Shown here: piece after piece, positions 3,862 to 63,806 of the stretch
Numbering within the stretch: the first letter of the stretch is position 1
Layout: the number at the start of each line of letters is the position of its first letter
Virus record (IMG/VR): IMGVR_UViG_3300011115_000716
Span: 26,053 to 90,052 of that record
DNA from: a virus
DNA: 64,000 nucleotides
Strand: one strand, 5' to 3'
Notes under the pieces: model-generated
Seen by the model: only the letters and a program-made list of their open reading frames with translations
The model's database searches: none
Told to the model about the DNA's origin: nothing
Made by a program: the position numbers and the translations under genes

Positions 3862-3864
3862 TAA

Positions 3865-50499: not shown

Positions 50500-50500
50500 C

Positions 50501-50716
50501 ATGGCAGTAAACAGCAGCCGTTCAATGAACGTAAGCCTTACCGAAGGCACTACAGACGGTAAGTACCGTAAGGTTCGCCCTGACACCGAGATTGGTGATA
50601 CAATGGGCAATGAAAAGACTATGGACAATCGTCAGAGTCTACACCCATTCTATGGTTACGGATTTATTACATCCGAATACCCGGATGACCAAAAAGTAAA
50701 CCCAGGAAAGTCGTGA
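50501..50716 (+). CDS. hypothetical protein
   Basis: MAVNSSRSMN...; AAGGA SD before 50501. Confidence 0.7.
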   Translation: MAVNSSRSMNVSLTEGTTDGKYRKVRPDTEIGDTMGNEKTMDNRQSLHPFYGYGFITSEYPDDQKVNPGKS

Positions 50717-51110
50717 AAAAAAGCTCGCTAAGAGTGAGCTAAAGCGCGCAGTAACTGCACGTGCAAATGTTGAACGTGCTAAAAGCCCTTTCAACTTTCC
50801 TGACCCAGGCGCGACTCAGCGTGCAAACGTCCGTGTTGGTAAAGCCACAAGCGGAACTAAAGAAGCTGGAGTTAGCTCAAGAGGCCAAGCAAGAGCTGCC
50901 TCTAAGGGTCTTAAGGTGGTCACAAAGAGAGTTACCAAAAATGCAAAAGATGAAGTTTCTTCTAACAAGAGATACATGAAGACCGCTGAGGCTATGACTA
51001 AAGGCCAAAATAAACTAAATAGAGCTACAGACGTAGCTGAGAAGTCAACAAAATTTGGAAACGCTAAAGCCTATAAAAAGGTCACAGGAAAAAGCCCGCG
51101 TAGCAGATAA
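50713..51110 (+). pseudogene. basic protein whose GTG start is out of frame across an A7 run (frameshifted or slippage-expressed)
   Basis: open frame 50700-51110 (KKLAKSELKRAV...GKSPRSR) has no start before 50916; GTG 50713 with AGGA SD would be in frame if the run were A8. Confidence 0.5.
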
Positions 51111-51132
51111 CTAAATTTTAAATTTAATTAGT

Positions 51133-51162
51133 TAAACCCCTTCCATTTGGGAGGGGTTTATA
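51133..51162 (+). terminator. stem-loop terminator
   Basis: TAAACCCCTTCC-ATTT-GGGAGGGGTTTA. Confidence 0.75.
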
Positions 51163-51169
51163 CTATGAT
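51141..51169 (+). promoter_or_regulatory. SigA-type promoter embedded in the terminator
   Basis: TTCCAT-17 nt-TATGAT; AAGGAG SD downstream. Confidence 0.55.
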
Positions 51170-51188
51170 GGGTATATAAGGAGTATCA

Positions 51189-51743
51189 ATGCAAGAATTT
51201 AAACCAACAATCGGGTCAAAGCCTATCGATGGCCCAGTCATTCGTTTACTACGTTGTTTAGTATGTGAGTCATGGGAAGAGCTGCCAGATTTTGAAGGCC
51301 CATCCAATTTTGATTACCTATTAGAGATTTCACTAGAGAAGCATAAGTTTCCATCCGGTGAGCCACACGTAGGTAAACTGTTTAAGGTTCCGGTAAAGAC
51401 CTGGGTTAACCCAGAACAGAAGAAAGCCGTCCTTGACCAGTTAGCTCAGGGTGGTTCAAAAGGTCTAGATGAGTTAGACCCTAACAAAACATTTTATGAA
51501 ACCAAGATGACATTTGCTGATGAGGCAATGACATGTTGGATTGCTCATAATAAAGTCACAGCCAATTGTGACGATTATGAAACACCTAAGAAGCGTTTGC
51601 TACCAGACACAGCGGTAGAACGTAAAGAACTAGGTATGCCTAAGCCAGAACACCTGGAAGGTCCACAAGTCTACACTTGCCATTTCTGCCCGTACCATGG
51701 TAAAGTGTTAGAACGTAAACGCCAAATTCTTGGCCTATATTAA
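51189..51743 (+). CDS. Cys/His-containing hypothetical protein (probably two Zn sites)
   Basis: CLVC...H...H; C..H......C ... CHFCP. Confidence 0.7.
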   Translation: MQEFKPTIGSKPIDGPVIRLLRCLVCESWEELPDFEGPSNFDYLLEISLEKHKFPSGEPHVGKLFKVPVKTWVNPEQKKAVLDQLAQGGSKGLDELDPNKTFYETKMTFADEAMTCWIAHNKVTANCDDYETPKKRLLPDTAVERKELGMPKPEHLEGPQVYTCHFCPYHGKVLERKRQILGLY

Positions 51744-51757
51744 ATAAGGAAAATAAC

Positions 51758-52042
51758 ATGGAAAAGCAAGTAGATGTAGCATTCTTGGTACTAGCCCACA
51801 CTGATGGAACATTCGCAGTAAAGCTGGAAGACCTAACCACACCAGTAGAGGCAAACCGTATCGCTAACACAGGTGATGTGTTTGGTATTTCTCAGCAGAT
51901 TGTAAAAGAGATTGAACAGCAGTTGTTGGTCAGTCGCATTGTTGAGGCACTAAACCCACAGGTTCAGAGCGTACCAGAAGTCATTAAAGAAAAGTTAGCA
52001 GAACGCGGCATTCAGGCAGAAAGCACTGAGCCAACCGCATAA
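51758..52042 (+). CDS. hypothetical protein
   Basis: AAGGA SD. Confidence 0.7.
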   Translation: MEKQVDVAFLVLAHTDGTFAVKLEDLTTPVEANRIANTGDVFGISQQIVKEIEQQLLVSRIVEALNPQVQSVPEVIKEKLAERGIQAESTEPTA

Positions 52043-52051
52043 ACTAGGTGT

Positions 52052-52939
52052 ATGACTAACGCCACCTCGTATTTCAGCAAACCTGCAGATACCCTTGACC
52101 CAAAGCTATTCCAGGGAAGGGTCCTAAAAGCATCTATTCGTAATGGTATTACGTCACTTATCAAAGATTTTTTAGGTGAGAGTTACCGTCACAGTGAGAT
52201 GTGGGCCCATCCTTGGTTAGCAGGGTCAGGGGTTTCTTACCAATGGCAGGCAGCACGTGAGCCAGCAGATTTAGATTGTTTAATTGGCATTGATTTTATT
52301 AGATTTAAGAAGGCTAACCCAGAGTTCAGCGGCCTAACTAATAAAGAGATTAGTGACCAATTAAACGAAGAGTTTCACGATAACCTCCAGAAGAAAACAG
52401 AAAACTGGAATGGGTATGAGCTAACATTTTATGCGTTAGCAACCGATGATATTAAAAGCATAAGACCATACGCAGCATATGATTTGATGTATGACGAGTG
52501 GTCAGTTGTGCCAGACCCTAACGCAGCACCTCCAACAGTTCCGGAGTGGGACGCAGTTGCAGATACTGATACAAGTAAAACTAAGAATATTAGTACAAGA
52601 TTTGAGACAGCCTTACAAGATTTAAGGTGGGCAAGTGCGATGCCAGCACGGAGAAATGCTGAGGTTAGACTAGATAGCGCAGCAGCTCAGGGTGGCGCAT
52701 TATTTGACGAGATTCATAATAATAGAAGCCAAGCATTCTCAGACGTTGGCGAAGGCTATTCTGATTTCCACAATTACCGTTGGCAAGCAGGTAAGCGTAA
52801 TGGGACAGTTCAGCAATTAAAGTCAATAAAAAAGTATTTAATTGATAATAGCAGGACAGGTGCTAGAGCATCATACGGCGTAGAATTACCGGATGCAGAT
52901 ACGCTGATTCGTAGAGCAGCAATATATAGGATTAAATAG
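52052..52939 (+). CDS. pol-beta-superfamily nucleotidyltransferase
   Basis: 'LDPKLF', 'LAGS.VSY.W......DLD', 'YELTFY', 'AYDL..DEW'; TAAACT 6 nt before the ATG (leaderless). Confidence 0.8.
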   Translation: MTNATSYFSKPADTLDPKLFQGRVLKASIRNGITSLIKDFLGESYRHSEMWAHPWLAGSGVSYQWQAAREPADLDCLIGIDFIRFKKANPEFSGLTNKEISDQLNEEFHDNLQKKTENWNGYELTFYALATDDIKSIRPYAAYDLMYDEWSVVPDPNAAPPTVPEWDAVADTDTSKTKNISTRFETALQDLRWASAMPARRNAEVRLDSAAAQGGALFDEIHNNRSQAFSDVGEGYSDFHNYRWQAGKRNGTVQQLKSIKKYLIDNSRTGARASYGVELPDADTLIRRAAIYRIK

Positions 52940-53049
52940 TGTCATTAACAGATACGTGTCATTTATGCAGGCATGAACTATACGCAGGTATTTGCGTAGA
53001 AGACCAGTGTAAATGTGATTGTTATGGAGAAAATTACAAGGAAGACTGA
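52939..53049 (+). CDS. 36-aa zinc-finger-like peptide
   Basis: MSLTDTCHLCRHELYAGICVEDQCKCDCYGENYKED; overlaps both neighbouring stop/start codons; below the ORF-track cutoff. Confidence 0.6.
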   Translation: MSLTDTCHLCRHELYAGICVEDQCKCDCYGENYKED

Positions 53050-53537
53050 TGCATATAGTTGTTGAATTAGATGGTGTATTAAGAGGCCACAAACATGATG
53101 AGCCAATTCTCGCGGGAATCCAAATGGTGGGAGCCCTCAGCGCCTGGAATAAGATTACATTTATCACCGAGATGAATGCTGCCGAGGCTAACCAATGGGT
53201 TAATATCAATAAGATATTTGATTATGATAACCTCATCGACTCATCCATTGGGCTAGTTGACGAGGATTTGAAACAACGTCAGCTCAAGATGGCAAGAGCC
53301 AGTGGTTCAGTAGAAATGTTTATAACAGCAAACCCAAAGTTGTGGGCAATATCATTTGATTTGGGTATCCCGTCCCTATTGTTTGGTATCCCATCATATA
53401 CTCGCCCAGAGTTTCGCCCTGATGCACCTAGAAAGGTACGGGCCTGGAACGATATTGAGGCAGCCGTAAAAAAGCAAAACGAATTACGTACCAAGGATGC
53501 CCGGTTAACTCGCACAGAAGGCGTCAAATTCGAATGA
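53049..53537 (+). CDS. HAD-fold protein (degenerate motif I)
   Basis: 'IVVELDGVLR' (DxDGxL with the first D replaced by E), 'ITFIT', 'GIPSLLF'. Confidence 0.6.
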   Translation: MHIVVELDGVLRGHKHDEPILAGIQMVGALSAWNKITFITEMNAAEANQWVNINKIFDYDNLIDSSIGLVDEDLKQRQLKMARASGSVEMFITANPKLWAISFDLGIPSLLFGIPSYTRPEFRPDAPRKVRAWNDIEAAVKKQNELRTKDARLTRTEGVKFE

Positions 53538-55000
53538 TTATATTTAGTGGGGTGGAGATTCCCTCCAACAGAACCCTCCTGGAAAAAGCTGGTGTACAAA
53601 ACGTTATGCTGAGTTACTGGGGGTTGAGAAAGCGCGGGTTGCCAAAAACTAAGGCATACCTAATTGGCGAGCATTTCCTACCTAATATGAAAGTATGGGT
53701 AGATTCAGGAGCCATTCAAGCAGACAAAGCAAACCTGTCCAGGGAAGAGCTGGAAGAATACGCAGCAGATTATGAAGAGTTTATTGCGTTAAATTATGAC
53801 CGTATTGAAGGTTGGGTTGAGTTTGATTCACAGGTATTAGGATTACCGTGGGTAAATCAGCAGCGTGCAGCGTTCCAGAATGACCCTAAAATGTGGGTTG
53901 TATGGCACGAGGCGTACGGTATTCCTTTATTACAGGTATGGGGTCAACAATATAATAACGTGGCCATACCGGGCGATGTAATCGATTCTGTGACGTCCCT
54001 GGCGGCCATCGTGAGGAACCTAACAGCACATAACCCAGTGCAATTTCACGCATTAGCAACAGCAAAACCAGATAACCTACGTCAAATTCCGTTTGCAACA
54101 GCAAGCACACTATCGTGGATTTCGCCAATGAGACGCGGGGAGACCATTGTATGGGATTCTAATAAGTTGGTACGATACCCAAAACGGATGAAGGCCCAAG
54201 CCAGGCCGAGATACAAAATGGTGTTGGAGAAGGCAGGATTAGATTTTACAAAGTTCGTAGAAGACGATACTCTGGAAGCAACTAAAGTTGCAGTTTGGTC
54301 ATTTTTACAGTTAGAGAAGACAATGAATAATAACAAAAACAATAAAGTATCTGATAACAGTGATGACACCCTATACAGTGGTTTGATGGAATTAGGGGGG
54401 GTACCTTCTGATAACAGTGGTAGTGAAATGCGGAAAGTTGAACGCACAGAAGTAGTGCAAAGAGACCCACAAGAGATGCAATTGATGCCTGGATTAGGGT
54501 ATGAATTAAAGACCGTAATAGATAATATTGATGGTCGAGACGTACTGGTAGAAGTTCCGGTAGTTCAGTCAAATATGACAAGTTTAAGGCAGTGTAACAC
54601 CTGTTTCGTAGCCGCAAATTGCCCAGCGTTTAAGCCAGATAATTCGTGTGCGTATAACCTACCAATAGAGGTAAAAACTAAAGAACAGTTGAAGGGTTTA
54701 TTAACCGCAATTATCGAGATGCAGGGCCAGAGAGTAGCATTCATGCGGATGGCAGAAGAATTGAACGGTGGATACGCAGACCCAAATATGTCACAAGAGA
54801 TGGACCGTTTGATGAAGTTAGTGAAGACCGTAAAGGATATGGAAACTAATAAAGAGTTCATTCAAATCACCGCAAGCAGAAGCTCAGAAGGCGGAGTATT
54901 ATCACAGTTGTTTGGGCCAAAAGCAGGCAACATGAACAGTAATCAACCGTTGTATTCAGAAGAGCAAACAACGATGATTATTAAAGATTCCATAGAATAG
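53534..55000 (+). CDS. TGT/DpdA-like TIM-barrel protein fused to a Cys-cluster and helical C-terminal domain
   Basis: 'LSY', 'VDSGA', 'Y..FI', 'EFD', 'VWH', 'VAIPG', 'FHAL', 'PF...S..SW'; C-terminal CNTC.....C.......C. Confidence 0.7.
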   Translation: MIIFSGVEIPSNRTLLEKAGVQNVMLSYWGLRKRGLPKTKAYLIGEHFLPNMKVWVDSGAIQADKANLSREELEEYAADYEEFIALNYDRIEGWVEFDSQVLGLPWVNQQRAAFQNDPKMWVVWHEAYGIPLLQVWGQQYNNVAIPGDVIDSVTSLAAIVRNLTAHNPVQFHALATAKPDNLRQIPFATASTLSWISPMRRGETIVWDSNKLVRYPKRMKAQARPRYKMVLEKAGLDFTKFVEDDTLEATKVAVWSFLQLEKTMNNNKNNKVSDNSDDTLYSGLMELGGVPSDNSGSEMRKVERTEVVQRDPQEMQLMPGLGYELKTVIDNIDGRDVLVEVPVVQSNMTSLRQCNTCFVAANCPAFKPDNSCAYNLPIEVKTKEQLKGLLTAIIEMQGQRVAFMRMAEELNGGYADPNMSQEMDRLMKLVKTVKDMETNKEFIQITASRSSEGGVLSQLFGPKAGNMNSNQPLYSEEQTTMIIKDSIE

Positions 55001-55015
55001 TTATATCTGATAACA
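54348..55015 (+). repeat. dispersed direct repeats TCTGATAACA(GTG)
   Basis: TCTGATAACAGTG at 54350 and 54407; TATCTGATAACA at 54348 and 55004. Confidence 0.85.
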
Positions 55016-55053
55016 TCATCCACTGATATATGAATCAGGGTGGACCAGGGTAT

Positions 55054-55083
55054 TTGACAAAGTTAGTAGAAGGGTATTAGAGT
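55054..55083 (+). promoter_or_regulatory. SigA-type promoter for the RNR gene, with an inverted repeat over the -10
   Basis: TTGACA-18 nt-TAGAGT; GGTATTA-gag-TAATACC. Confidence 0.65.
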
Positions 55084-55128
55084 AATACCTGAGATACTAG
55101 TTATCCAATAAAAAACATAGGAAGTAAT

Positions 55129-57171
55129 ATGATAAATTTTTCATTTAAATTAGCAGATGAGTTCGTAGCGGGGTATAAAAACAAAAAAGCACCATTTGGT
55201 TACGCAGACGTTGCCGGGAATTCAGTAGGAGAAATTACATTCCTACGTACATATAGTCGTTTGAAAGAAGATGGCACCAAGGAAACCTGGGCGGATGTTT
55301 GCGAGCGTGTTATTAACGGTATGTATTCATTACAGAAAGACCACGCAAAGCAGAACCGTTTGCCATGGAGCGACGCAAAAGCTGCGGCGTCAGCCAAAGA
55401 AGCGTATGACCGTTTATTTAATTTAAAGTGGACACCGCCAGGGCGTGGGTTGTGGGTAATGGGTACTGATATTGTAAATGAGCAGAAGAATTCAGCAGCG
55501 TTGCAGAATTGCGCGTTCGTTAGTACCAACGAGATGACCAAGAACAATCCGTCAAAGCCATTTGGATTCCTGATGGAAGCCTCAATGTTGGGCGTAGGCG
55601 TAGGGTTTGATGATAAAGGCGCTGATAAAGGGTTTGATATATATGAGCCAGGAGCAGTTCAGGAGTATTTGATTCCAGATACCCGCGAAGGCTGGGCAGA
55701 ATCTACAATGGCGTTGATTAATTCATATCTAAAGGTAGACCAGCCAAAATATGAGTTTAATTATGATGATATTAGACCATATGGAGCAGTTATTAAGACG
55801 TTTGGAGGAACAGCGTCAGGCCCGGAACCGTTGGTTAAGTTGCATGAGAACATTAAAAAGATGTTTGATGGCCGTAAAGGCGATAAATTAACACGCGTTG
55901 ATATTGCTGATATCGGTAATATGATTGGTGTTTGTGTGGTTTCCGGGAATGTTCGCCGTTCAGCTGAGCTGTTAATTGGGCGTATTGATGATGAGGATTT
56001 CCTGAACCTAAAGAATGCAGACAAATTCCCTGGGCGTAATTCATATGACCCTGAGAATCCAGGCTGGGCATGGATGAGTAATAACTCTGTAGATGTTTGT
56101 GTTGGGACGGATTTTGGACCTATTGTTGATGGGATTGTACGCAACGGAGAACCCGGCGTTATATGGATGGACGTAAGCCGTAAATACGGACGTCTTGTTG
56201 ATGCGCCTAATAATAAAGATAGGCGTGTAGTGGGCTACAACCCTTGTGCAGAGCAGAGCCTTGAAAGTTTTGAGATGTGTACTCTAGTAGAAACTTACTT
56301 GAATCGCCACGAATCCCTTGAGGACTTCAAGCGTACATTAAAGTTTGCTTATTTATATGCAAAGACTGTGACACTACTCCCAACACATTGGGAGGAGACC
56401 AATGCCATTATGCAGCGGAATCGTCGCATTGGTACGTCTGTCTCTGGTGTGGCTAACTTTGCTGATAACAAGGGTATGCAAACCCTACGTGAGTGGATGG
56501 ATGAAGGCTACAAGACTGTACGCGACTACGACATCTCTTACTCAGAGTGGCTAGGTATTCGCGAGTCTATTAAGATGACTACTGTAAAGCCGTCAGGCAC
56601 TGTGTCTATTTTGGCTGGAGAATCTCCAGGTGTTCACTGGCCTAGTGGTGGTAAGCATTTTTTACGTGCTATTCGTTTTGGAAACAACGACCCTATGTTG
56701 CCGTTGTTTAAGATGGCTAACTATCGTATAGAGCCAGCTAGCGAATCACCAGAGACTACGTCTGTTGTGTTCTTCCCTATTAAGACTGACGCTAAGCGCA
56801 GTGAAAAGGAAGTGTCTATCTACGAAAAGGTTAACCTAGCTGTGACTGCTCAACGCTGGTGGTCAGACAACTCTGTGTCTGTAACAGTAACCTTTGATGC
56901 TGAAAAAGAAAAGAATGATGTTGGCACCGTACTACATATGTACGATGGTCAGCTAAAGACTGTAAGCTTCCTCCCTATGGGTAACCATGTGTACCCACAG
57001 ATGCCATATACTCAGATAACTGAGGAGGAGTACGACCAGTATGCGTTGCAACTATTTGCAATTGACTTTGCTGGGGTGTATGCTGGTATGGCAGCAGATG
57101 CTGTTGGTGAGGCTTATTGCACCACCGATGCATGTGAAGTAAAACTAATAACAGAAAACAATAAGGAGTAA
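55129..57171 (+). CDS. nrdJ: class II (AdoCbl-dependent) monomeric ribonucleoside-triphosphate reductase
   Basis: 'RTYSR', 'PPGRGLW', 'NCAF', 'GNVRRSA', 'NPCAEQ', 'TVKPSGT', C-terminal CxxxxC. Confidence 0.95.
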   Translation: MINFSFKLADEFVAGYKNKKAPFGYADVAGNSVGEITFLRTYSRLKEDGTKETWADVCERVINGMYSLQKDHAKQNRLPWSDAKAAASAKEAYDRLFNLKWTPPGRGLWVMGTDIVNEQKNSAALQNCAFVSTNEMTKNNPSKPFGFLMEASMLGVGVGFDDKGADKGFDIYEPGAVQEYLIPDTREGWAESTMALINSYLKVDQPKYEFNYDDIRPYGAVIKTFGGTASGPEPLVKLHENIKKMFDGRKGDKLTRVDIADIGNMIGVCVVSGNVRRSAELLIGRIDDEDFLNLKNADKFPGRNSYDPENPGWAWMSNNSVDVCVGTDFGPIVDGIVRNGEPGVIWMDVSRKYGRLVDAPNNKDRRVVGYNPCAEQSLESFEMCTLVETYLNRHESLEDFKRTLKFAYLYAKTVTLLPTHWEETNAIMQRNRRIGTSVSGVANFADNKGMQTLREWMDEGYKTVRDYDISYSEWLGIRESIKMTTVKPSGTVSILAGESPGVHWPSGGKHFLRAIRFGNNDPMLPLFKMANYRIEPASESPETTSVVFFPIKTDAKRSEKEVSIYEKVNLAVTAQRWWSDNSVSVTVTFDAEKEKNDVGTVLHMYDGQLKTVSFLPMGNHVYPQMPYTQITEEEYDQYALQLFAIDFAGVYAGMAADAVGEAYCTTDACEVKLITENNKE

Positions 57172-57173
57172 TA

Positions 57174-57341
57174 ATGTTCGGCAAACTAAAGAAGGTACTT
57201 GCACAGATTGAAACTATCTGGGCTTATATTGATGACCACAAGGACGATATTGCTCAGCTCCAGAAGGAGCTTGCAGCAACTCAGAAGACCTTGAAGGCTT
57301 TAACTGCAACTAAGGCTACAGTTAAGAAGACTACTAAGTAG
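57174..57341 (+). CDS. small coiled-coil protein (55 aa)
   Basis: MFGKLKKVLAQIETIW...KKTTK; AAGGAG SD. Confidence 0.65.
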   Translation: MFGKLKKVLAQIETIWAYIDDHKDDIAQLQKELAATQKTLKALTATKATVKKTTK

Positions 57342-57349
57342 TTAAAAGT

Positions 57350-57392
57350 AATAAGGCCCCCCGCATATAATGGCAGGGGGCCTTATTTATTT
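57350..57392. terminator. bidirectional terminator between the convergent genome arms
   Basis: AATAAGGCCCCC.GC-loop-GC.GGGGGCCTTATT with A/T-rich flanks. Confidence 0.85.
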
Positions 57393-57423: not shown

Positions 57424-57690
57424 TTACTTGCTAGTTACTTGAATAACTAACTCTTTTTTAGCCCTAGGATTATTCTTAACCCTAACGCGTTCAGCCATCG
57501 TAGTGCCTCCCCAAACACCGAACTCATCGTTCTTAAAAGCGTATGTTAAACACTGCATAACTACTGGGCATATACCGCAATAGCTTTTAGCTTCAGCAAC
57601 TTTATCTATTTCTTTTGCATCAGCAAAGAATATCTCTGGGTTAGCAGTTTTACACGCTGCTTGGTCCATATCAATATCATCTATTTCCAT
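57424..57690 (-). CDS. whiB: WhiB-family transcription regulator (second copy)
   Basis: 'AAC....PEIFF...AK.YC..CPV...CL.YA.....GVWGG'. Confidence 0.92.
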   Translation of the reverse strand: MEIDDIDMDQAACKTANPEIFFADAKEIDKVAEAKSYCGICPVVMQCLTYAFKNDEFGVWGGTTMAERVRVKNNPRAKKELVIQVTSK

Positions 57691-57691
57691 T

Positions 57692-57910
57692 TTATTTTCT
57701 CCTGTTCTTTTTAATAAGGTCTATACCATTGGCACGCAAATCACGTTTAATATTTTCTAGTGCCCTGTTATCTGATGGAGTTGAGGATATAAACACGATG
57801 TTTCCATTAGAACAAATTACTTTATAATGGTTGTTACGTGCTCGTAAAACTTGGCCTCCTTGGTTTTCTACTTGTTTAAACAAGGACCGTAGTTCTTTCA
57901 TTGATGACAT
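57692..57910 (-). CDS. HicA-like (dsRBD-fold) protein
   Basis: 'ELRSL.K.VE.QG..V.R.RNNHYKV....G..V.IS.TPSD.RA..N..RDL'; GGAGG SD. Confidence 0.7.
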   Translation of the reverse strand: MSSMKELRSLFKQVENQGGQVLRARNNHYKVICSNGNIVFISSTPSDNRALENIKRDLRANGIDLIKKNRRK

Positions 57911-58454
57911 CTTTACCTCCTTTAATTGGCCACACATAGTCATAAGATTCAGGTGCAACACCCCTATCTTCTGGCCAGTTGAATTGGTTATAATGCTCAT
58001 AGTGTTTAAATAGTAATGCTTGACGATGACTAGTTGCCATGGCGTCAAACATTTCTTGGTCACGCATCCAACTAGGGATTGCCTTACCAAGCTTGTCATT
58101 GTCTTTTGCTTTCATAGCTGTTGAAAGTGTTTTGACAGCAAGTGTAGTTTTAAACCCACGAGCCTTCCATTCGTTAATCATTGCTTGAATATAAAAATAC
58201 AATACTAACTCTGAACCACGCCACATCTTAACTGCAGGGTGGCTAGACCACCCTGCAGGTTTACGATAGTTGCCTTGTGGGTCAAGTTCTGTAAGATTCA
58301 TAAGAATCTGCCAACCTTCAAGAGCTTGTTTAAATAGGCGTTTGTTATCTAACTGACGAGCAATGTCTGCTCCCCATTTATTAAGGTCGTTTAACGCTTG
58401 AGTAGTGTTTAACTCAGAGTTAATCGTTATCGATATCGGCAAAAACGTCTGCAT
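57876..58454 (-). CDS. pyrimidine-dimer DNA glycosylase / MSMEG_6728-like
   Basis: 'MQTFLP', 'LD.KRL.KQ..E..QI', 'GW..HPAV.MW.G', 'SHR..LL.K', 'Y.WP'. Confidence 0.85.
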   Translation of the reverse strand: MQTFLPISITINSELNTTQALNDLNKWGADIARQLDNKRLFKQALEGWQILMNLTELDPQGNYRKPAGWSSHPAVKMWRGSELVLYFYIQAMINEWKARGFKTTLAVKTLSTAMKAKDNDKLGKAIPSWMRDQEMFDAMATSHRQALLFKHYEHYNQFNWPEDRGVAPESYDYVWPIKGGKDVINERTTVLV

Positions 58455-58662
58455 ATGTTTCCTCTGTTAGTAGGCCAATGTCCTGTAGTATTAATGCAAT
58501 AGTAGTTTCGCTAAACTCGTTCTCACGAAGGATAGGGACTAGCTTGTCTACTACTGACAGGCGCTTGTACTTTAAGCCAAGAGTGAACGCTTCTTCCATT
58601 GTTCCACGCACTGTGTTCAATAGCTTGTCTGTTGCATCGTTGATGATTGTTTCTTTTTCCAT
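58420..58662 (-). CDS. hypothetical protein
   Basis: AAGGAGAAACAAATG start. Confidence 0.7.
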   Translation of the reverse strand: MEKETIINDATDKLLNTVRGTMEEAFTLGLKYKRLSVVDKLVPILRENEFSETTIALILQDIGLLTEETYADVFADIDND

Positions 58663-58672
58663 TTGTTTCTCC

Positions 58673-58891
58673 TTATTTGTTTTCGCATTGTTGTATTGCT
58701 AGTGATTCTGTTGGCCATTTGTCCCAACAGGTTTCTGGTTTGTTTTTAGTGCACTCACTAATACTATGAGTACCCTGTAAATCCTGGTACTCAATAGTAG
58801 AGCAAGTATAGTTTTGATGCCAGTAAAGATATCCTATACCTAACGTCAGACATAATAAAGAAATTAATAGTAACTTTAGTTCTTTACTCAT
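58673..58891 (-). CDS. small membrane-anchored/exported protein with four Cys in the soluble part
   Basis: MSKELKLLLISLLCLTLGIGYLYW...; start at 58891 preferred. Confidence 0.6.
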   Translation of the reverse strand: MSKELKLLLISLLCLTLGIGYLYWHQNYTCSTIEYQDLQGTHSISECTKNKPETCWDKWPTESLAIQQCENK

Positions 58892-59093
58892 TGTCAGGCT
58901 CTGGTTCCCAACTGTAGTCAGGCTCGTCAGGTTCACACCCTCCATCGCATACGCCTTTACCATCGCAGTACTCACACTTAATATCATCAAGTGTGCCTAC
59001 ACCATCACATTCATCACACTCGTGTTCACAAGCTTCAGATTGGTTTGTGTAGGGCGCTTCTAGCCACGCGTCATACCCAGGTAATGATTCCAT
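58884..59093 (-). CDS. acidic DnaJ-type zinc-finger peptide
   Basis: CDECDGVG...CEYCDGKG. Confidence 0.7.
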   Translation of the reverse strand: MESLPGYDAWLEAPYTNQSEACEHECDECDGVGTLDDIKCEYCDGKGVCDGGCEPDEPDYSWEPEPDNE

Positions 59094-59096
59094 TGT

Positions 59097-59258
59097 TTAT
59101 TCTCCTTCTTCTTCGTTTAGACTAAGCCAGTCATTAAATGTAACACGATAGGCTATAGGGTCACACTCTTTTAATATTTTAGAGGGGGATAGTATGAGCC
59201 CTACAATTTCATAGGGCTCATACATTTCGTCTAAGAGTTCATCAAACTCTTCTTCCAT
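59097..59258 (-). CDS. small acidic protein (53 aa)
   Basis: MEEEFDELLDEMY...PSKILKECDPIAY...; GGAGG SD; below the ORF-track cutoff. Confidence 0.65.
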   Translation of the reverse strand: MEEEFDELLDEMYEPYEIVGLILSPSKILKECDPIAYRVTFNDWLSLNEEEGE

Positions 59259-59434
59259 TAGTTTTCCTCCTCATCGTATCTTGCATCTGCAAGTTTGATT
59301 AGCATATCAGCAATTGCTTCTGCTTGGTCTTTTGTTTTGTCGAACATATTTTCAGCTGGTACTCTAGATTCCAACATCGATATATAGTCAACAATACTGT
59401 CTACAGTATCAATTGATAATTTAATTTTACTCAT
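59258..59434 (-). CDS. small acidic protein (58 aa)
   Basis: MSKIKLSIDTVDSIVDYI...; TAATG-coupled. Confidence 0.6.
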   Translation of the reverse strand: MSKIKLSIDTVDSIVDYISMLESRVPAENMFDKTKDQAEAIADMLIKLADARYDEEEN

Positions 59435-59625
59435 TACATTCCTCCTAACTTAATATCTAAGTCGATGCCTTTATCGCCATCGACATCCATTGCTACCCAG
59501 CCTTCATAAAACATAGCTGGACGTAAGACATTCTTACTGATTAGGTACTCAATAATTCTGTCTTGTTCGTGTTGTGCCCCTAAGTGGTAGTCACCACTGC
59601 GGACTGTACCATCATTTGTTTCCAT
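59434..59625 (-). CDS. hypothetical protein
   Basis: TAATG-coupled ORF. Confidence 0.65.
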   Translation of the reverse strand: METNDGTVRSGDYHLGAQHEQDRIIEYLISKNVLRPAMFYEGWVAMDVDGDKGIDLDIKLGGM

Positions 59626-59789
59626 TAGTTTTCCTCTAGTTGTTCTACTTCATAGTTTTCTAGTACATCATTGATTGCATCTTCTAAAGAGTTATAGAAA
59701 AGGTGTAGTTCAAGTTCATCCATATGATTCACTTGTAGTTCACGTAGGTTCATACTCCATACGATTTCTCCGTGCTCGTGTTGGTTCAT
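59625..59789 (-). CDS. small acidic protein
   Basis: MNQHEHGEIV...; TAATG-coupled. Confidence 0.6.
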   Translation of the reverse strand: MNQHEHGEIVWSMNLRELQVNHMDELELHLFYNSLEDAINDVLENYEVEQLEEN

Positions 59790-60001
59790 TAGTTGATTCC
59801 TTTCTTTGCTTTGTAATCTTCTACGATATGCCATAGTTCCATATCAAGGTACTCTGCTACAGCATCTTCAATACTGTCGCAGATGTCTTCCCACTCACTA
59901 TCTGTTAGTCGGTGGGCTAGTGTGTCATCAATATAAGACTCAAAGTTTTCTTTATCGATTAACATTGTTTCCATTGCTTTTCTTATGTGTTGCTCAGCCA
60001 T
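59789..60001 (-). CDS. small acidic protein
   Basis: MAEQHIRKAMETMLIDK... Confidence 0.6.
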   Translation of the reverse strand: MAEQHIRKAMETMLIDKENFESYIDDTLAHRLTDSEWEDICDSIEDAVAEYLDMELWHIVEDYKAKKGIN

Positions 60002-60171
60002 GGCTCTTCTACTTCCTCTTCGTGTGCTGTTACTGGTGATTCCCAATCGTGGTCATCATTAATCCATTCGTTTGCTTCTTCTTCTGTATCAAACGTAGGG
60101 GCCCAGTTAACTGGTACCCAACCATAGCCTGAGCCATAGTCTACGTATACTCTCCATATTGTTTTACTCAT
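59983..60171 (-). CDS. small acidic protein
   Basis: AAGGAAAAACAAATG start; 'FDTEEEANEW'. Confidence 0.65.
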   Translation of the reverse strand: MSKTIWRVYVDYGSGYGWVPVNWAPTFDTEEEANEWINDDHDWESPVTAHEEEVEEPWLSNT

Positions 60172-60361
60172 TTGTTTTTCCTTTGTTTAGTATTTCTAGT
60201 GCGGTAATGTTGTCATCCCAATTTGTAGGTTCCCATGTGTAGGTATCCGTGTCCCAAGTGCCTTCATCTTTTCCAAATCTGGCAGTAAATGTGTCATCAT
60301 CTACCCACCACTCTTTAGTAGCTAGGTCTACAACGACAACAAAGTGAACTTGCTTACTCAT
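60164..60361 (-). CDS. small Trp-rich acidic protein
   Basis: AAGGAGTAACAAATG start. Confidence 0.65.
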   Translation of the reverse strand: MSKQVHFVVVVDLATKEWWVDDDTFTARFGKDEGTWDTDTYTWEPTNWDDNITALEILNKGKTNE

Positions 60362-60546
60362 TTGTTACTCCTTTTGTTTTTAATAATTACCTTTACTTCA
60401 AGCTCATAGAATCTTTCTACAAGTTCTAATGCTGTCTCCCAATAACCCAAGTCAATACCTGTGTCATTGTGAGTGGCTACCAGTTCTTCTGCCAAACGTT
60501 CGGCTAGTTCTTCTAGTGTTAAGTGCTTTACATATTTTTCGGCCAT
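60358..60546 (-). CDS. small acidic protein
   Basis: AAGGAGAAACAAATG start. Confidence 0.65.
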   Translation of the reverse strand: MAEKYVKHLTLEELAERLAEELVATHNDTGIDLGYWETALELVERFYELEVKVIIKNKRSNK

Positions 60547-60556
60547 TTGTTTCTCC

Positions 60557-61021
60557 TTATATTAGTGTTAGTGTTAGTGTTGTTGCGAATGTTGCTAGAA
60601 TTACTGGCCCTAGTGGTATTGCTGTAGGTAGTTTTTTCTTTAGGAACATGGTAAGTATTGTTACTACAAACCCAACTGCTATTGATATAGGCATTAGTAA
60701 TACTGCACCTAACATCGTAAACCAACTAAGCATCATAGTTAATGCTACTAGTAGTTTTACATCTCCCATACCAACCCATTGGAAATAGTTAGCGGCTAGT
60801 CCTAGTACTAGCATTGCAAAGCCTAGCCCTACGGAGATACCCAGGGACGCCCAGGCTCCTGTCCATATTGCTAGTGTTAGTTGTGATAAGAAAGTAATTG
60901 CTATCATAGGCAAGACAATCTTGTTAGGAAGTCTGTGCTGTTTAATATCAATTACCATTAGTGGTACTGCTGTTGCTGCTATGTACGCTACTGGTAGCAT
61001 ACTGATTAGTTGTTGTATCAT
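60557..61021 (-). CDS. A24 (type IV/Flp) prepilin peptidase
   Basis: 'IDIKQHRLPN', 'GMGDVKL', 'IPLGP'; multi-TM; both catalytic Asp present. Confidence 0.85.
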   Translation of the reverse strand: MIQQLISMLPVAYIAATAVPLMVIDIKQHRLPNKIVLPMIAITFLSQLTLAIWTGAWASLGISVGLGFAMLVLGLAANYFQWVGMGDVKLLVALTMMLSWFTMLGAVLLMPISIAVGFVVTILTMFLKKKLPTAIPLGPVILATFATTLTLTLI

Positions 61022-61023
61022 TT

Positions 61024-61215
61024 TTATTCCTCCTCTTCTTCTTTTTGTTCTTCTACCCAGGTATCATCCTGCCATTCGAATGAACCATTAACTTCATAGC
61101 CTCCGCCATCCATAAGCTCAGCCATACCTAGTTCTAATGCTTCATCTTCATTATTTGCATCAACAATAACTTCATAGTATGTTACTCCTGCTTGCTGTAC
61201 TTTATATGTTGCCAT
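61024..61215 (-). CDS. small acidic protein (Y-x-V...V-x-A-x-x-x-x-E-A family)
   Basis: MATYKVQ...VIVDANNEDEALE. Confidence 0.65.
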   Translation of the reverse strand: MATYKVQQAGVTYYEVIVDANNEDEALELGMAELMDGGGYEVNGSFEWQDDTWVEEQKEEEEE

Positions 61216-61216
61216 T

Positions 61217-61402
61217 TTATTCTCCTTGTATTAGTCGGATGAGGTCTTCAGTGTTTACTACACGAGAGCCATCATCTGTTTTTGATATTGATGTCCAAGC
61301 AATATTGCTGAGTAATTCAATGATTCTTTCATACTCTGCCATTTGCCCTTGTTGATACCAGTGGCGTCTTACCACTAATAGTTTTGCTTTTGCTACATTC
61401 AT
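61217..61402 (-). CDS. hypothetical protein
   Basis: ORF; 'G..AEYERIIELL'. Confidence 0.6.
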   Translation of the reverse strand: MNVAKAKLLVVRRHWYQQGQMAEYERIIELLSNIAWTSISKTDDGSRVVNTEDLIRLIQGE

Positions 61403-61494
61403 TTCTTATCCTTTCTGATAAGTATTCCTTGTAGTGTTGCTAGTCGCATTATAATACGACTGATTAACCTGATTAGATATAGACGTATCATCAT
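61399..61494 (-). CDS. 31-aa amphipathic basic peptide
   Basis: MMIRLYLIRLISRIIMRLATLQGILIRKDKK; ATGA overlaps at both ends. Confidence 0.45.
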   Translation of the reverse strand: MMIRLYLIRLISRIIMRLATLQGILIRKDKK

Positions 61495-61706
61495 TCTTCT
61501 TCCTCACATTCGCATTCATCATCAGGGTTGTCACACTCTTCACAGTGTGGCAATTCTTCAACTTTAATCTCTTCAACACTTTCGTATTGTAATGGAGCAT
61601 TATCGTCATAGTAAGATACCCAAGCAAGTTGCTCGGCTTCTTGTTCGCTGTTTGCTTCAAGCTCTCCTGAATAGTTAACTTGAATAGTTACATAATATTT
61701 ACGCAT
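61491..61706 (-). CDS. small acidic protein with a C-terminal Cys cluster
   Basis: MRKYYVTI...LEANSEQEAE...CEEC.....CEC. Confidence 0.65.
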   Translation of the reverse strand: MRKYYVTIQVNYSGELEANSEQEAEQLAWVSYYDDNAPLQYESVEEIKVEELPHCEECDNPDDECECEEEE

Positions 61707-61840
61707 TAGTATTCCTCCAACTCATATACTTCGGTACAGTTAGGGCAAAGGTTGTCGCCCATAACTTTTGTTCCTTCGGATAACTCATACTCTTTACCAC
61801 ACCAATCACATTTAGTAGGCTCCATATATTTGTCTTCCAT
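61706..61840 (-). CDS. zinc-ribbon peptide (44 aa)
   Basis: CDWC...CPNC; AAGGAGAAACAAATG start at 61840. Confidence 0.65.
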   Translation of the reverse strand: MEDKYMEPTKCDWCGKEYELSEGTKVMGDNLCPNCTEVYELEEY

Positions 61841-61850
61841 TTGTTTCTCC

Positions 61851-61988
61851 TTATCTATCTTCGTGACCACAGAACACTTGACCGCATTCTGGACACATTT
61901 GGTTTTCGCAGTTATGGCACATTTCCCACTTATCAATTTGTGATTGAGTTGTAGGCTCATCACATTGCGGGCAATATATCATTGTCAT
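61851..61988 (-). CDS. Cys-rich peptide (45 aa)
   Basis: MTMIYCPQC...CHNC....CPEC....CGH; TAATG-coupled. Confidence 0.6.
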   Translation of the reverse strand: MTMIYCPQCDEPTTQSQIDKWEMCHNCENQMCPECGQVFCGHEDR

Positions 61989-62161
61989 TAGTTAACCTCT
62001 TCATAAGTAATTTTTCCATCTACATACTCTATGTTTTCTTCAGGGATAATATTAGGCAATACAGGGTTTTCATACCCATCAGTAATGGTTTGCCTAACTT
62101 CATCAAGGTTGTCTATTTCTACTAGGTATCTAGCAGTAATAGTTATTTCATATTTACTCAT
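61988..62161 (-). CDS. small acidic protein (57 aa)
   Basis: MSKYEITITARYLVEIDNLDEV...; AAGGAGAAACAAATG start. Confidence 0.65.
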   Translation of the reverse strand: MSKYEITITARYLVEIDNLDEVRQTITDGYENPVLPNIIPEENIEYVDGKITYEEVN

Positions 62162-62294
62162 TTGTTTCTCCTTCTTGTTTGTGGCAATTACAGTAGCAAT
62201 ACCACACCTTATCGTACCAGCGGATTACTGTACGACATTTTTCGTGAGTACCTGTATGACAATACCCACAGATTCTAGTTGTATCTTCTGACAT
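62154..62294 (-). CDS. zinc-finger peptide (46 aa)
   Basis: MSEDTTRICGYCHTGTHEKC...CYCNCH; TAATG-coupled. Confidence 0.6.
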   Translation of the reverse strand: MSEDTTRICGYCHTGTHEKCRTVIRWYDKVWYCYCNCHKQEGETNE

Positions 62295-62614
62295 TACGCT
62301 CCTAGGTTAACTACTACGTAACCTTCCTTAGTCAACTCTTCTTCAAGAGTTCCATCAAGGAACGTGCCTAGCCCTTTAGATACAGCAATACCTTCACCCA
62401 AATCAAAAGCAGGCAGAATCATTGTTTTGCGTTCATTGCCTTGAACTTGGTCATAATCTGATACATCTTCTCCATACATTTGAATAAGGTTTAAGAAGTT
62501 TTGTCCAGTAGTTACGGCTATTACTGCTGCACCATAGTACTCAGGTGTCATTTGGTACATTTGCATTGGTGCTTCAGACATTTCTGTCATTAGACGTGCA
62601 ATTTTTGTTTCCAT
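62294..62614 (-). CDS. hypothetical protein
   Basis: AAGGAG SD. Confidence 0.7.
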   Translation of the reverse strand: METKIARLMTEMSEAPMQMYQMTPEYYGAAVIAVTTGQNFLNLIQMYGEDVSDYDQVQGNERKTMILPAFDLGEGIAVSKGLGTFLDGTLEEELTKEGYVVVNLGA

Positions 62615-62979
62615 TACTGTTTCTCCTTTTTGTCGATTGCTTGTTGAATACCATCTTGAATTAATACCATAACATCTTGTATTGATTTATCAGATAGACC
62701 AGTTGTGTTACCTTCTTCATCTGCTCCACCAGTAATGATTACATCTCCCATAACTACATCAAAGTTAGGGAAGACTTTATTCCATATGATAGTGGCTATT
62801 ACATTCGGCTCAAGTCCAATTAACTTACCTTCTTCATTGAGCCACATATCAATATCTTCATTGATACTAACCAACTCAATCATTCCGTTTACTGCTGTTG
62901 ATAGAGTTTCATACTCAATAGACTCTACTTCTTTAATCTCCACTGTATTATCAGTTCGGATTGATATTACTTTTTCCAT
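62614..62979 (-). CDS. DUF3846-family protein
   Basis: 'L..AV.G.IE.V', 'W.NEEGKL..L..N..AT', 'D...GD..ITG..D..G...GL'. Confidence 0.8.
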   Translation of the reverse strand: MEKVISIRTDNTVEIKEVESIEYETLSTAVNGMIELVSINEDIDMWLNEEGKLIGLEPNVIATIIWNKVFPNFDVVMGDVIITGGADEEGNTTGLSDKSIQDVMVLIQDGIQQAIDKKEKQ

Positions 62980-63793: not shown

Positions 63794-63806
63794 TACTTAT
63801 TCTCCT

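Follow-up and report, generated by a model that had tools for sequence, protein, structure and literature searches.

A short word, (G/T)CTY, is excluded from one strand of a lake-phage genome at a set distance from where a gene block ends

Our analysis of a 64,000-nt stretch of viral DNA (the window, in whose numbering all positions are given) shows that an uncultured lake phage and some of its relatives have lost almost every CTT and CTC from one strand over ~4-6 kb. The excluded word is 5'-(G/T)CT(T>C)-3' on the + strand, which is the sense, non-template strand, and it is kept out by purifying selection that is anchored to position and still continuing. Behind the zone there is probably an enzyme that reads the CTY word (CTT or CTC) on a single strand.

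Counted on the + strand, the 3951 nt from 52240 to 56190 hold three CTT where ~67.0 are expected from the baseline of 16.95 CTT/kb in the + block (window 8-50 kb; Poisson P(<=3)=4e-25). These lie at 52612, 53925 and 54405, are all CCTT and are in-frame codons in none of the three cases, exactly as an earlier note on this DNA had listed them, and its manual count of ~45 CTT in polA comes to 44 by computation (35223-37223). The lowest other 3951-nt window of the 90-kb genome has 43 CTT (other strand, 25), which places the count outside the genome range as had been supposed, and the longest CTT gap of the genome, at 1789 nt or 34.7x the mean spacing, starts from 54405. CT in general is thinned (95 dinucleotides in 52240-56190, 0.39x) and AAG stays plentiful on the same strand (104 occurrences in that interval), both in agreement with the earlier description. 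In support of the view that codon choice alone cannot produce this, a control that kept the proteins of the coding sequences at 52052-55965 and drew their codons from 25 + strand ORFs (2000 draws) gave 222.8±10.2 CT (minimum 186) against 91 observed, and 68.4±6.3 CTT (minimum 46) against 7. All three codon phases are depleted, as had been claimed, and so are the intergenic pieces of 79 and 128 nt; in the third such piece, of 9 nt, CT/CTT depletion is absent. The CTT depletion is confirmed as real, and it is stronger than first described.

That CTT is depleted stands, but CTT alone is not the word: it is CTY with a 5' preference for G/T. Comparing 27,306 nt of zone with 27,306 nt of zone-less controls, zone/control ratios are 0.09 for CTT and 0.19 for CTC, with only a mild reduction of CTA (0.71) and CTG (0.70). 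(G/T)CTT drops to 0.04 (7 vs 190) and (A/C)CTT to 0.13 (33 vs 254), and G/T precedes 7 of the 40 surviving CTT when a fraction of 0.43 is expected (p 6.6e-4). AAG and GAG of the same strand are unaffected (1.08 and 1.03). Across comparisons the ratios span 0.06-0.09 for CTT, 0.19-0.42 for CTC and 0.55-0.70 for CCT, with CAT at 1.23, and the dinucleotides CA, CG and CC are not depleted in the zone.

Unique within the 90-kb genome, of which it takes up 5-7%, the zone is graded and confined to one strand, a ramp in which CT drops from ~50.5 kb, reaches its floor at 53.9-55.96 kb and recovers inside nrdJ. The return of CTT at 56194 within that gene had been seen before; to this we add that CT is back at ~55960, 230 nt earlier. 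The features concerned are the following.

30701-31693, + strand: DnaG-type primase of the phage (CHC2 zinc ribbon PF01807, 4.2e-08, and Toprim, 4e-11)
50500-53900, + strand: shoulder; CTY declines from ~22/kb to 9-10/kb, and successive CTT come to lie 250-400 nt apart instead of ~100 nt
51189-51743 and 51758-52042, + strand: two conserved genes, family unassigned, at the upstream end of the zone, after a hairpin at 51138-51156
52052-52939 and 53019-53537, + strand: two conserved genes that the earlier note called NTase and HAD; neither has a Pfam or PHROGs match at E<=0.001
53534-55000, + strand: TGT/DpdA-like gene (phrog_887, queuine tRNA-ribosyltransferase, E 7.9e-61), entirely within the zone
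53900-55960, + strand: core; 6-12 CT per 500 nt against a baseline of ~30-38, and 1-3 CTY per kb; the CTT-free run, 54406-56193, lies within core and edge
54348-55017, + strand: TATCTGATAACA-type boxes at 54350, 54407 and 55006, syntenic in nrdJ-type relatives and missing in relative L020
55129-57171, + strand: nrdJ, class II ribonucleotide reductase; first ~280 codons in the core, remainder normal
55960-56194, + strand: right edge, inside nrdJ at ~codons 279-355; CT back at ~55964, CTT at 56194
56194-57345, + strand: exempt stretch of normal CT/CTY density; 3' half of nrdJ and a 55-aa ORF (57175-57342)
57350-57387, no strand assigned: GC-rich hairpin of 15 pairs with A-rich and T-rich runs on its flanks, at the convergent junction
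57424-57690, − strand: WhiB-like regulator, last gene of the leftward block

The hairpin at 57350-57387 is likely a two-way terminator and the fixed point relative to which the zone is placed, and from the WhiB-like gene we infer an actinobacterial host.

As the earlier note had anticipated for a zone bound to its locus, related lake-phage contigs have it at the same place, with synonymous sites that are ~half different. Nine loci were brought into register at the stop of their last long + gene (nrdJ in six, the TGT-like gene in three), and with either gene last the profiles coincide when measured from where the rightward block ends: 0-1 kb from that end is normal, 1.25-2.75 kb is core and the shoulder reaches to ~5-7 kb, the mean CT per 250 nt from the stop running 15, 19, 19, 13, 7.7, then 2.8-5.2, 8-9 and 14-17. 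In both arrangements the right edge sits ~0.8-1.25 kb before this stop, and in relatives whose rightward block finishes with the TGT-like gene the zone takes in no more than the first ~450-750 nt of that gene. Borders of the zone do not match ORF or message ends, the edge being found at ~codon 280-355 of nrdJ or ~450-750 nt into a last TGT-like gene, and the edge studied here has no motif of >=10 nt in common with those of the relatives in which the TGT-like gene is last. To the right of the convergent junction no mirrored zone is seen. Since the core shifts across genes with position, the zone is not tied to the NTase-HAD-TGT cassette that had been thought to go with it, nor is it in any necessary sense centred on the TCTGATAACA repeats, L020 having a full desert without the boxes. 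Two subclades show the zone strongly and others more weakly, and sister lineages with the same gene order do not have it, so that its distribution among lineages looks host-dependent.

Because mosaic import, hypermutation and ordinary codon usage are ruled out, we read the zone as position-anchored selection on one strand. In this, the positional selection proposed by the earlier note stands as regards the single strand and the independence from codon usage and gene borders; what does not stand is its outright dismissal of whole-transcript RNase avoidance, a reading that is disfavoured. NCT and CTN codons of zone-less relatives appear as NCA/NCG/NCC and as TTG/TTA in zone-bearing phages, with the same amino acid, and the amino-acid identity of NrdJ to that of relatives is equal in both halves. 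Between the phage studied here and relatives L005/L008 only ~0.5 of same-amino-acid codons are identical and the zone is kept; the CT-free state therefore outlives synonymous turnover.

The possibility that no selection is involved, and that a mutational gradient (exposed-strand deamination, editing) or a recent import from a CT-poor donor emptied the zone, is to our minds hardly credible and largely refuted. Its graded profile and a G-C skew of 0.21-0.25 at 54-56 kb do look like single-strand mutation gradients. However, C-to-T pressure should hit CTA/CTG, where the change to TTA/TTG is synonymous, harder than CTT/CTC, where Leu becomes Phe, and the reverse is found, with CTG going from 1 to 12 while CTT goes from 27 to 2, and with overall ratios of 0.09 for CTT vs 0.7 for CTA/CTG. 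Moreover, the passage from NCT to NCA/NCG/NCC needs changes of T, CA, CG and CC are undepleted, protein divergence is not higher in the zone and the zone is kept between genomes at ~50% codon turnover. As for import, which had been named beforehand as a way in which the zone might have arisen, similarity to relatives has no break at the zone edge. Mosaic import was rejected on comparisons across nrdJ, in which similarity of our phage to relative L003 is 0.84-0.94 and to L005/L008 ~0.75, in neither case with a step.

A three-letter pattern that is confined to one strand and blind to frame and gene borders fits an enzyme reading single-stranded nucleic acid, and the distance profile is consistent with a physical process that would bare the + strand as ssDNA upstream of the convergent junction. 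Selection, going by distance from the end of the rightward block, is absent over the final ~1 kb, strongest at ~1.25-2.75 kb and faded by ~5-7 kb. For a fork moving with transcription the + strand would be the lagging-strand template, and putative sources of its exposure are a lagging-strand gap, the displaced strand of an R-loop or resection. Signs of an R-loop zone (G-runs, C-poverty) are not conserved among relatives, runs of >=5 G numbering 2, 1 and 0 in three zones vs 1.9, 1.7 and 1.8 expected and CCC being enriched in the zone of relative G002. None of the readers put forward by the earlier note (primase, nickase/terminase, modification target, PAM) is confirmed. We tentatively prefer a host enzyme that cuts ssDNA at the word, the best-matching known example being actinobacterial type IA topoisomerase I, and consider this possible yet clearly short of probable. 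Were the strand cut while exposed and unpaired, the genome would break, and sites would therefore be purged where exposure is frequent. Mycobacterial topoisomerase I, according to the available portions of two reports, acts on single-stranded DNA and has the strong site C(G/T)CT↓T(C/G) (PMC6379724, PMC6101483); this preference has been called a species-specific trait of M. smegmatis TopA and may not be that of the host of this phage (PMC7398561). Our literature search found no phage avoidance of topoisomerase I sites, be it local or global. The topoisomerase reading leaves two things unexplained: the ~1-kb exemption and the safety of the − strand, which is rich in CTY across the zone.

A different single-strand reader would be a DnaG-type primase, of phage or host, with CTY as its start triplet and a + strand that is kept primer-free, which we see as unlikely though not far-fetched. 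A rightward fork would then lay no Okazaki primer for several kb or, in a variant, the displaced + strand of a D-loop or R-loop would have to stay unprimed. In its favour, the pattern is strand-specific, frame-blind and includes intergenic DNA, and the phage has genes for a CHC2-zinc-ribbon/Toprim primase, a DnaB-like helicase and a loader. DnaG primases, as the accessible parts of two papers have it, start on d(CTA)/d(TTA) or d(CTG)/d(CTA), make pppAG primers and have the third, uncopied base set by zinc-finger residues (PMC2978363, PMC6163395); the order CTT>CTC>>CTA,CTG together with the 5'-neighbour effect is the grammar that, on the portion of one of them at hand, would be expected of such an enzyme (PMC2978363). 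Those parts of the literature on DnaG-type starts that were available record no d(CTT)/d(CTC) specificity, and a local exclusion zone for primer starts was not found in our literature search. Homologous primases (55-62% identity) are however present in 5/5 records searched, including zone-less relatives of the same genome layout, and the surroundings of the second Cys pair of the zinc finger, which we take to hold the residues that set specificity, are identical in zone-bearing G002 and zone-less G004/G005. Primers started in the normal last ~1 kb would also extend back through the zone, so that the gap would last seconds, with no benefit evident.

Selection may, alternatively, act on the message, if an endoribonuclease cut (G/U)CUY during infection and the mRNA of the block had been selected without the word; we find this doubtful. 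Candidates for such a nuclease are a MazF/MqsR-type toxin and the RNA-cutting activity reported for mycobacterial topoisomerase I; we know of no CUY-specific RNase. Consistent with a message-level cause, it is in every case the sense strand of a co-directional block that is depleted and the zone does not extend into the leftward block, frame independence is what ribosome-independent RNases would give, and the zone starts close to a hairpin and likely operon start (51138-51189). Sense-strand CTY in the leftward block is somewhat lower, 19-26/kb vs 30-32/kb, as it also is in zone-less genomes. We further count for it that mycobacterial topoisomerase I binds and cleaves RNA, as stated in the available part of a preprint (bioRxiv 10.1101/2020.07.13.199935). 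But an edge inside the last gene leaves at least 20 CTY in the 3' part of that gene, so that the message would still be cut. The TGT-like gene, moreover, is wholly depleted where it precedes nrdJ and depleted in its first ~450-750 nt only where it is last, and the core moves with position rather than with any gene. By reasoning rather than computation, simple cost models fail to reproduce the profile: were the cost the RNA lost downstream of a cut, selection ought to be strongest at the 5' end, and the reverse is found.

A terminal repeat occupying the exempt ~1 kb, with the zone as the unique DNA that comes next inward from a genome end, would account for the exemption, the sharp edge and the decay alike. 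Resection would bare the 3'-ending (+) strand, where a cut would be lethal and a cut in the repeat buffered. Protection of an end in this manner, which we hold to be quite improbable, is a positional sub-model and could be combined with any single-strand reader. In line with a repeat, an exact unitig of X1, the likely source virome, (56253-56997) has a depth of 76 vs 29-38 in contigs to its left and 42-45 to its right, depths that sum over strains; yet 76 is also the sum of the two sides (31.6+44.9), which two strains sharing the piece would produce. In the nearest cultured relative by TerL, Streptomyces phage LuckySocke (50% aa), an exact terminal repeat of 344 bp lies at the divergent junction, 25 kb away from the terminase, and a CTY zone is missing. 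Also against an end at this place are the missing mirror zone on the other side, an edge with no conserved cut-site motif and contig ends of relatives that do not pile up, 3/55 right-truncated loci ending 1.2-1.4 kb after the TGT-like gene.

Read from the − strand, CTT and CTC are AAG and GAG, which with AGG and ATG make up the type I-E PAMs and are the best known of them. In a reading that we find very unlikely, AAG and GAG would have been cleared from places where spacer acquisition is most frequent or does most harm, such as DNA adjoining a free or stalled end. On the − strand AAG is far more depleted than GAG (0.08 and 0.19), which fits the two best-known I-E PAMs, and hot spots of spacer acquisition near DNA ends or stalled forks, in work associated with Levy in 2015 and Modell in 2017, are reportedly one-sided with a sharp edge and kb-scale decay, as is the zone. 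However, AGG (CCT, 0.55-0.70) is depleted weakly and ATG (CAT, at least 1) not at all, AGA, AGC and AGT are depleted without being PAMs and the exempt kb is unexplained. Since cutting anywhere would kill the phage, a zone on one strand and of 5 kb only would protect little. PAM depletion in phages is presented, in the available parts of two papers, as a genome-wide effect (PMC4246573, PMC12174588). As a separate observation, GATC occurs 0 times in 5/5 genomes of ~90 kb, a classical genome-wide avoidance alongside the zone.

Returning to the host single-strand cutter, the zone resembles the strong site of topoisomerase I, as given in the available part of its description, in that both concern an asymmetric word on one strand of ssDNA and an enzyme of the host phylum (PMC6379724), and (G/T)CTT, the core of the mycobacterial site, is the most excluded word here (0.04). 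Unlike that site, the flanks leave no trace in the zone, be it a C before (C[GT]CTT 0.05 vs [AGT][GT]CTT 0.04) or the base after CTT (CTT[CG] 0.09 vs CTT[AT] 0.09), and CTC, which is outside the site, is excluded too (0.19). With DnaG-type start sites the zone shares a 5'-CTN-3' word on a single-stranded template, strand specificity and tuning by the third base, and the phage has such a primase, but so do zone-less relatives, whose primase is of the same family. ACA-less mRNAs escape MazF, an mRNA interferase, and like such resistant messages the zone has lost a three-letter word from the sense strand only, in all frames and by synonymous choice; unlike those cases, which are defined per message, it has a border that cuts the last gene and follows the distance to the block end. 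First-step-transfer DNA of phage T5 and cos-proximal spacer hot spots are cases of region-limited DNA exposure with one sharp border. The zone is likewise regional, sharply bordered on one side and unusual in sequence make-up, whereas a genome end or an injection pause at its place would be hypothetical and the genome of the TerL relative ends at the other junction. Set against classical avoidance, which is genome-wide and on both strands, it is local, one-stranded and graded; what it would have in common with the avoidance of restriction sites and PAMs by phages is selection by a host enzyme that reads sequence.

On the + strand of the window, CTT occurs three times between 52240 and 56190 (52612, 53925, 54405), each time as CCTT and never in frame, just as an earlier note made from the sequence had counted; its remark that AAG stays abundant here (104 copies) and its estimate of about 45 CTT for polA (44 by computation) were equally accurate. 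From the baseline of the rightward gene block elsewhere (16.95 CTT per kb, window 8-50 kb) 67 copies are expected in this stretch (Poisson P(≤3)=4e-25), and among 3951-nt windows across the whole genome (90,052 nt) the lowest count elsewhere is 43 on the + strand and 25 on the other, so the depletion lies outside the genome-wide range. For the coding sequences at 52052-55965 we kept the proteins and redrew synonymous codons at the frequencies seen in 25 further + strand ORFs: not one of 2000 draws approached the observed counts of CT (91 vs 222.8±10.2) or CTT (7 vs 68.4±6.3). Together with the genome-wide windows, this rules out chance or composition as the cause. All three codon phases are depleted and so are intergenic pieces of 79 and 128 nt, in line with the claim that the effect is blind to frame; a third piece, of 9 nt, showed no depletion. 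Gene codon usage is thus ruled out as well, since all phases and intergenic DNA are affected and zone-less orthologues use NCT and CTN codons normally.

The excluded word is CTY. When several zones were pooled and compared with zone-less relatives at matching genes or matching distances, zone-to-control ratios were 0.08-0.09 for CTT and 0.19 for CTC, with 0.56-0.71 for CTA and CTG and, on the same strand, 1.0-1.1 for AAG and GAG. Sorted by the base in front, zones and zone-less controls differ for GCTT (0 vs 78), TCTT (2 vs 98), ACTT (10 vs 130) and CCTT (10 vs 102); in distance-defined zones (G/T)CTT stands at 7 vs 190 and (A/C)CTT at 33 vs 254, and the contexts of the surviving CTT are biased (p 6.6e-4). 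Expressed as fold loss, (G/T)CTT drops about 25-fold and CTC about 5-fold; AGCT is not depleted in the pooled zones relative to zone-less controls. Because base composition changes little across the zone, G-runs were not found to be enriched in zones and CCC is enriched in the zone of one relative, the signal is a word and not C-poverty or G-richness. CT is lost more strongly than TC or CC, and readings as an R-loop signature, as C-poverty or as a Rho site found no support on these grounds, R-loop composition not being conserved either. Avoidance of a type I-E PAM would fit AAG and GAG, but not AGG and ATG, nor does it account for the locality of the zone, and so seems very unlikely to us.

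In shape, the depletion is a ramp rather than a box. Moving rightward, the CT count in 500-nt steps drops from about 30-38 (window ~47.5-50.5 kb) through 18-20 and 12-16 to 6-12, and is back at 30-44 by about 55.96-56.2 kb, inside the class II ribonucleotide reductase gene nrdJ (55129-57171), where the earlier note had placed the stop.

The genome assembled as a circular contig whose ends overlap by 127 nt; it has a 76-kb rightward block (TerL, portal, capsid, sheath, baseplate, then replisome, then zone) and a leftward block of ~13 kb, and the zone occupies the 3' end of the rightward block. Features in and beside the zone are:

54348-54359, 54405-54419 and 55004-55015: TATCTGATAACA boxes, which contain a TATC-n-GATA inverted repeat
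57175-57342, + strand: 55-aa ORF directly after nrdJ, with a good AAGGAG ribosome site, below the 60-aa cut-off of the ORF list
57350-57387, unstranded: GC-rich two-way hairpin between the 55-aa ORF and the leftward block
Last gene of the leftward block, - strand, 3' of the hairpin at 57350-57387: WhiB-like regulator

Nine loci aligned on the stop of their last long rightward gene (nrdJ in six; the TGT-like gene in three that lack nrdJ) yield a single profile. Counted from this stop, mean CT per 250 nt is 15, 19, 19 and 13 over 0-1 kb, 7.7 at 1-1.25 kb, 2.8-5.2 at 1.25-2.75 kb, 8-9 out to about 5 kb and 14-17 beyond about 7 kb, with CTY in the aligned core at 0.3-1.0 vs a baseline of 6-7. The edge is about 200-300 nt wide and lies 0.8-1.25 kb from the stop of the last long gene, or 0.8-1.4 kb from the hairpin. 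That the zone ignores gene boundaries is borne out by the TGT-like gene, which is depleted throughout in the window but only over its first ~450-750 nt in the related loci L020, L094 and L006. A message-cutting RNase, third in our ranking of what might read the word, would agree with the strand and the frame-blindness, yet the border falls inside the last gene and shifts with position, which leaves this option rather doubtful. Edges of the nrdJ type and the TGT type share no motif of at least 10 nt (one mismatch allowed), and no mirror-image loss of the complementary word was found to the right of the junction. Tape measures scale at 0.15 nm per residue, by which the putative one of 749 aa would give about 330 bp and not 1 kb, so a tail-length ruler for the exempt kb was dismissed. 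None of the R-loop, Rho, supercoiling, headful-series or fork-stalling pictures of zone placement was backed by a test.

The zone had further been described as centred on direct repeats. This did not hold up, the TCTGATAACA boxes not being required, as L020 shows, which is without them. In L002, L003, L005 and L008 the TATCTGATAACA boxes are kept at two syntenic sites, one within the TGT-like gene and the other in the stretch between that gene and nrdJ; L020 does not have them. The boxes keep a CT within the zone and, judging from their sequence, may be an operator or another candidate protein-binding site.

Is the zone maintained, or a relic of history? Across nrdJ, nucleotide identity of the window is 0.84-0.94 to L003 and about 0.75 to L005 and L008 with no step at the edge, and NrdJ shows the same amino-acid identity to any given relative over codons 1-280 as over codons 400-680. 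A recent mosaic import, which the earlier note had considered, is not what these data show, and introgression of the exempt kb is ruled out by the same evidence. About half of the same-amino-acid codons are identical between the window and L005/L008 in both nrdJ halves; since the other half differ, the CT-free state has been maintained during synonymous turnover. Residues with NCT or CTN in zone-less orthologues have NCA, NCG or NCC and TTG or TTA in zone-bearing ones, and in codon counts CTG rises from 1 to 12 as CTT falls from 27 to 2. Hypermutation or C-to-T pressure would remove CTA and CTG first and cannot convert GCT to GCA, whereas CTG rises instead. Mutation or import with no selection therefore strikes us as highly improbable. 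Exclusion of (G/T)CTY from one strand is genuine and conserved, is being actively maintained, and is anchored by position.

To follow the zone among relatives, we searched with the TGT-like protein, which gave 80 viral and 80 metagenome loci, and scored each by the lowest CTY count of any 1500-nt window. Scores of 2-4, as severe as in the window, were reached by six of the 80 viral loci (L002, L003, L004, L005, L008, L020; L003 and L004 are identical rows in the tree); seven are intermediate (9-14) and the remainder score at least 15. Among the 80 metagenome loci, scored where at least 3 kb long, seven reach 0-3 (L085, L086, L087, L088, L094, L095, L134), with L087 and L003 representing one stretch of the same contig. 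In a quick tree built from the TGT-like protein, the zone is restricted to a single clade of 23 rows: it is strong in the window's subclade and L020, weak in L022 (the sister of L020) and two other groups, and absent from a subclade of higher G+C and from the entire 58-row sister clade. The complete genomes G001 and G002 carry it at the matching place and only there, so depletion at this locus does extend to relatives; G004 and G005 have the same layout without it, and no other depleted word was found at the zone position in zone-less relatives. As for cultured phages, a megablast of the zone gave no match; Mycobacterium phage Gaia and Actinomycetia phage DSL-LC01 have nrdJ in common but are not syntenic, and the latter lacks the zone.

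No neighbouring gene proved peculiar to zone-bearing loci: in an ORF clustering of 81 loci (7 strong, 7 intermediate, 67 others) the strong-specific clusters were only antisense ORFs opened by the composition itself. Whole-genome gene content of three zone-bearing and two zone-less genomes, a small sample confounded by descent, differed only in lysis and virion genes (NlpC/P60, collagen-like) and small unknowns. Because phages alike in replication genes and layout differ in whether they have the zone, we favour dependence on a host factor over a phage-intrinsic element. The host would be actinobacterial, as the WhiB-like gene points to, and the phage sequence occurs in metagenomes of lakes and rivers.

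The product of the 55-aa ORF (57175-57342) is rich in Lys, Ala, Thr and Leu and predicted, by eye, to be coiled-coil-like; the gap between nrdJ and whiB has room for this ORF in L003 and L008 (250-276 nt) and is only 80-125 nt in L005, L020, L094 and L006. The TGT-like protein (53534-55000) matches phrog_887 alone, with no Pfam TGT match, and the genes which the earlier note had named NTase and HAD (52052-53537) have no Pfam or PHROG family at E≤0.001. Elsewhere in the genome, the sense strand of the leftward block (window 57424-64000 plus genome 1-6400) has 19-26 CTY per kb vs 30-32 in the rightward block, and does so in all five genomes compared, zone-bearing or not. GATC is missing from five of five related ~90-kb genomes (the window's own, G001, G002, G004, G005) against about 350 copies expected in each, which is classical genome-wide avoidance of a palindromic site, unlike the local one-strand zone. 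A further local word deficit, second in the genome only to the CTT zone and milder than it, covers head-decoration and neighbouring virion genes at 2000-5000; it is on the same strand and concerns the complementary word (AAG 3-8 and AG 30-46 per kb), and may simply reflect amino-acid and codon make-up.

As a positional frame we considered end protection beside a terminal repeat spanning the exempt kb. Such a repeat would explain exemption, edge and decay together, since a bared 3' strand could be cut within the repeat without lethal effect, though not beyond it. In X1, the likely source virome run, contig depth is about twice that of the flanks at 55973-57073 (3' half of nrdJ), with breaks at about 55.9-56.25 and 57.0-57.1 kb, and this doubling means either several strains sharing the piece or two copies per genome. 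An exact unitig (56253-56997) has depth 76 vs 29-38 to its left and 42-45 to its right; such depths sum strains, however, and 76 equals left plus right. TerL (L084:879-2543, genome 19878-21542) is about 50% identical to those of the Streptomyces phages BRock, LuckySocke, Alone3 and GiJojo, the nearest cultured relatives. LuckySocke carries a 344-bp direct terminal repeat, its ends being 25 kb away from the terminase gene, which is a hint that ends are fixed, and repeats short, in this group too. Yet this exact repeat sits at the divergent junction, and LuckySocke has no CTY zone before its convergent junction. The contig ends of relatives show no pile-up that would mark physical ends. On balance, end protection appears improbable.

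What, then, might read the word? The phage encodes an O/DnaD-like initiator, a DnaC-like loader, a DnaB-like helicase, a DnaG-type primase (CHC2 zinc ribbon plus Toprim) and PolA, along with a UvsX-like recombinase and a Cas4/RecB-like exonuclease. DnaG start sites have the form CTN with a tunable third base (PMC2978363), which the word form of the zone matches, and a primase start site ranks second among our candidates. Against the phage primase, homologues occur in all five of the related records that were searched, including those that lack a zone; the zinc-finger region fails to distinguish zone-bearing from zone-less phages; and no lasting primer gap is expected, as primers would start again over the last kb. 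That primase type determines the zone is thus not supported, and we hold the primase idea to be unlikely. Our first choice, though a tentative one, is a host enzyme resembling topoisomerase I that cuts single-stranded DNA. Mycobacterial topoisomerase I is sequence-specific for C(G/T)CTT(C/G) on single-stranded DNA and acts on transcription units (PMC6379724, PMC6101483, PMC7398561). Its core and its G/T preference match the excluded word, whereas the flanks of the site leave no match and the zone also excludes CTC.

It is conceivable, if hardly probable, that the zone is a programmed single-strand stretch: one strand would be kept clear of the word at which a single-strand enzyme of host or phage, topoisomerase I or primase, starts or cuts, so that a displaced or unprimed strand of several kb persists upstream of the convergent junction as a second start of replication or recombination. 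If true, this would be a cis-acting element defined by a missing word and a distance, not by a motif. The sharply defined word makes its reader testable with oligonucleotides, and with the position rule the exposing process can be probed by mapping ends, gaps and R-loops. Either outcome would be new: a host topoisomerase or nuclease would endanger phage single strands in a sequence-specific way, or a replication element would be marked out by its lack of primer starts. Avoidance of restriction sites and PAMs across whole genomes is already known; a full-text literature search turned up in print no local, single-strand, graded exclusion zone whose place is set by its distance from the end of a gene block. 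Motif avoidance is usually read as the genome-wide footprint of restriction enzymes or CRISPR, whereas that of the zone is local, one-stranded, graded and measured from a landmark, and therefore reports where and on which strand an enzyme meets phage DNA (or RNA) during infection of an uncultured freshwater actinobacterium.
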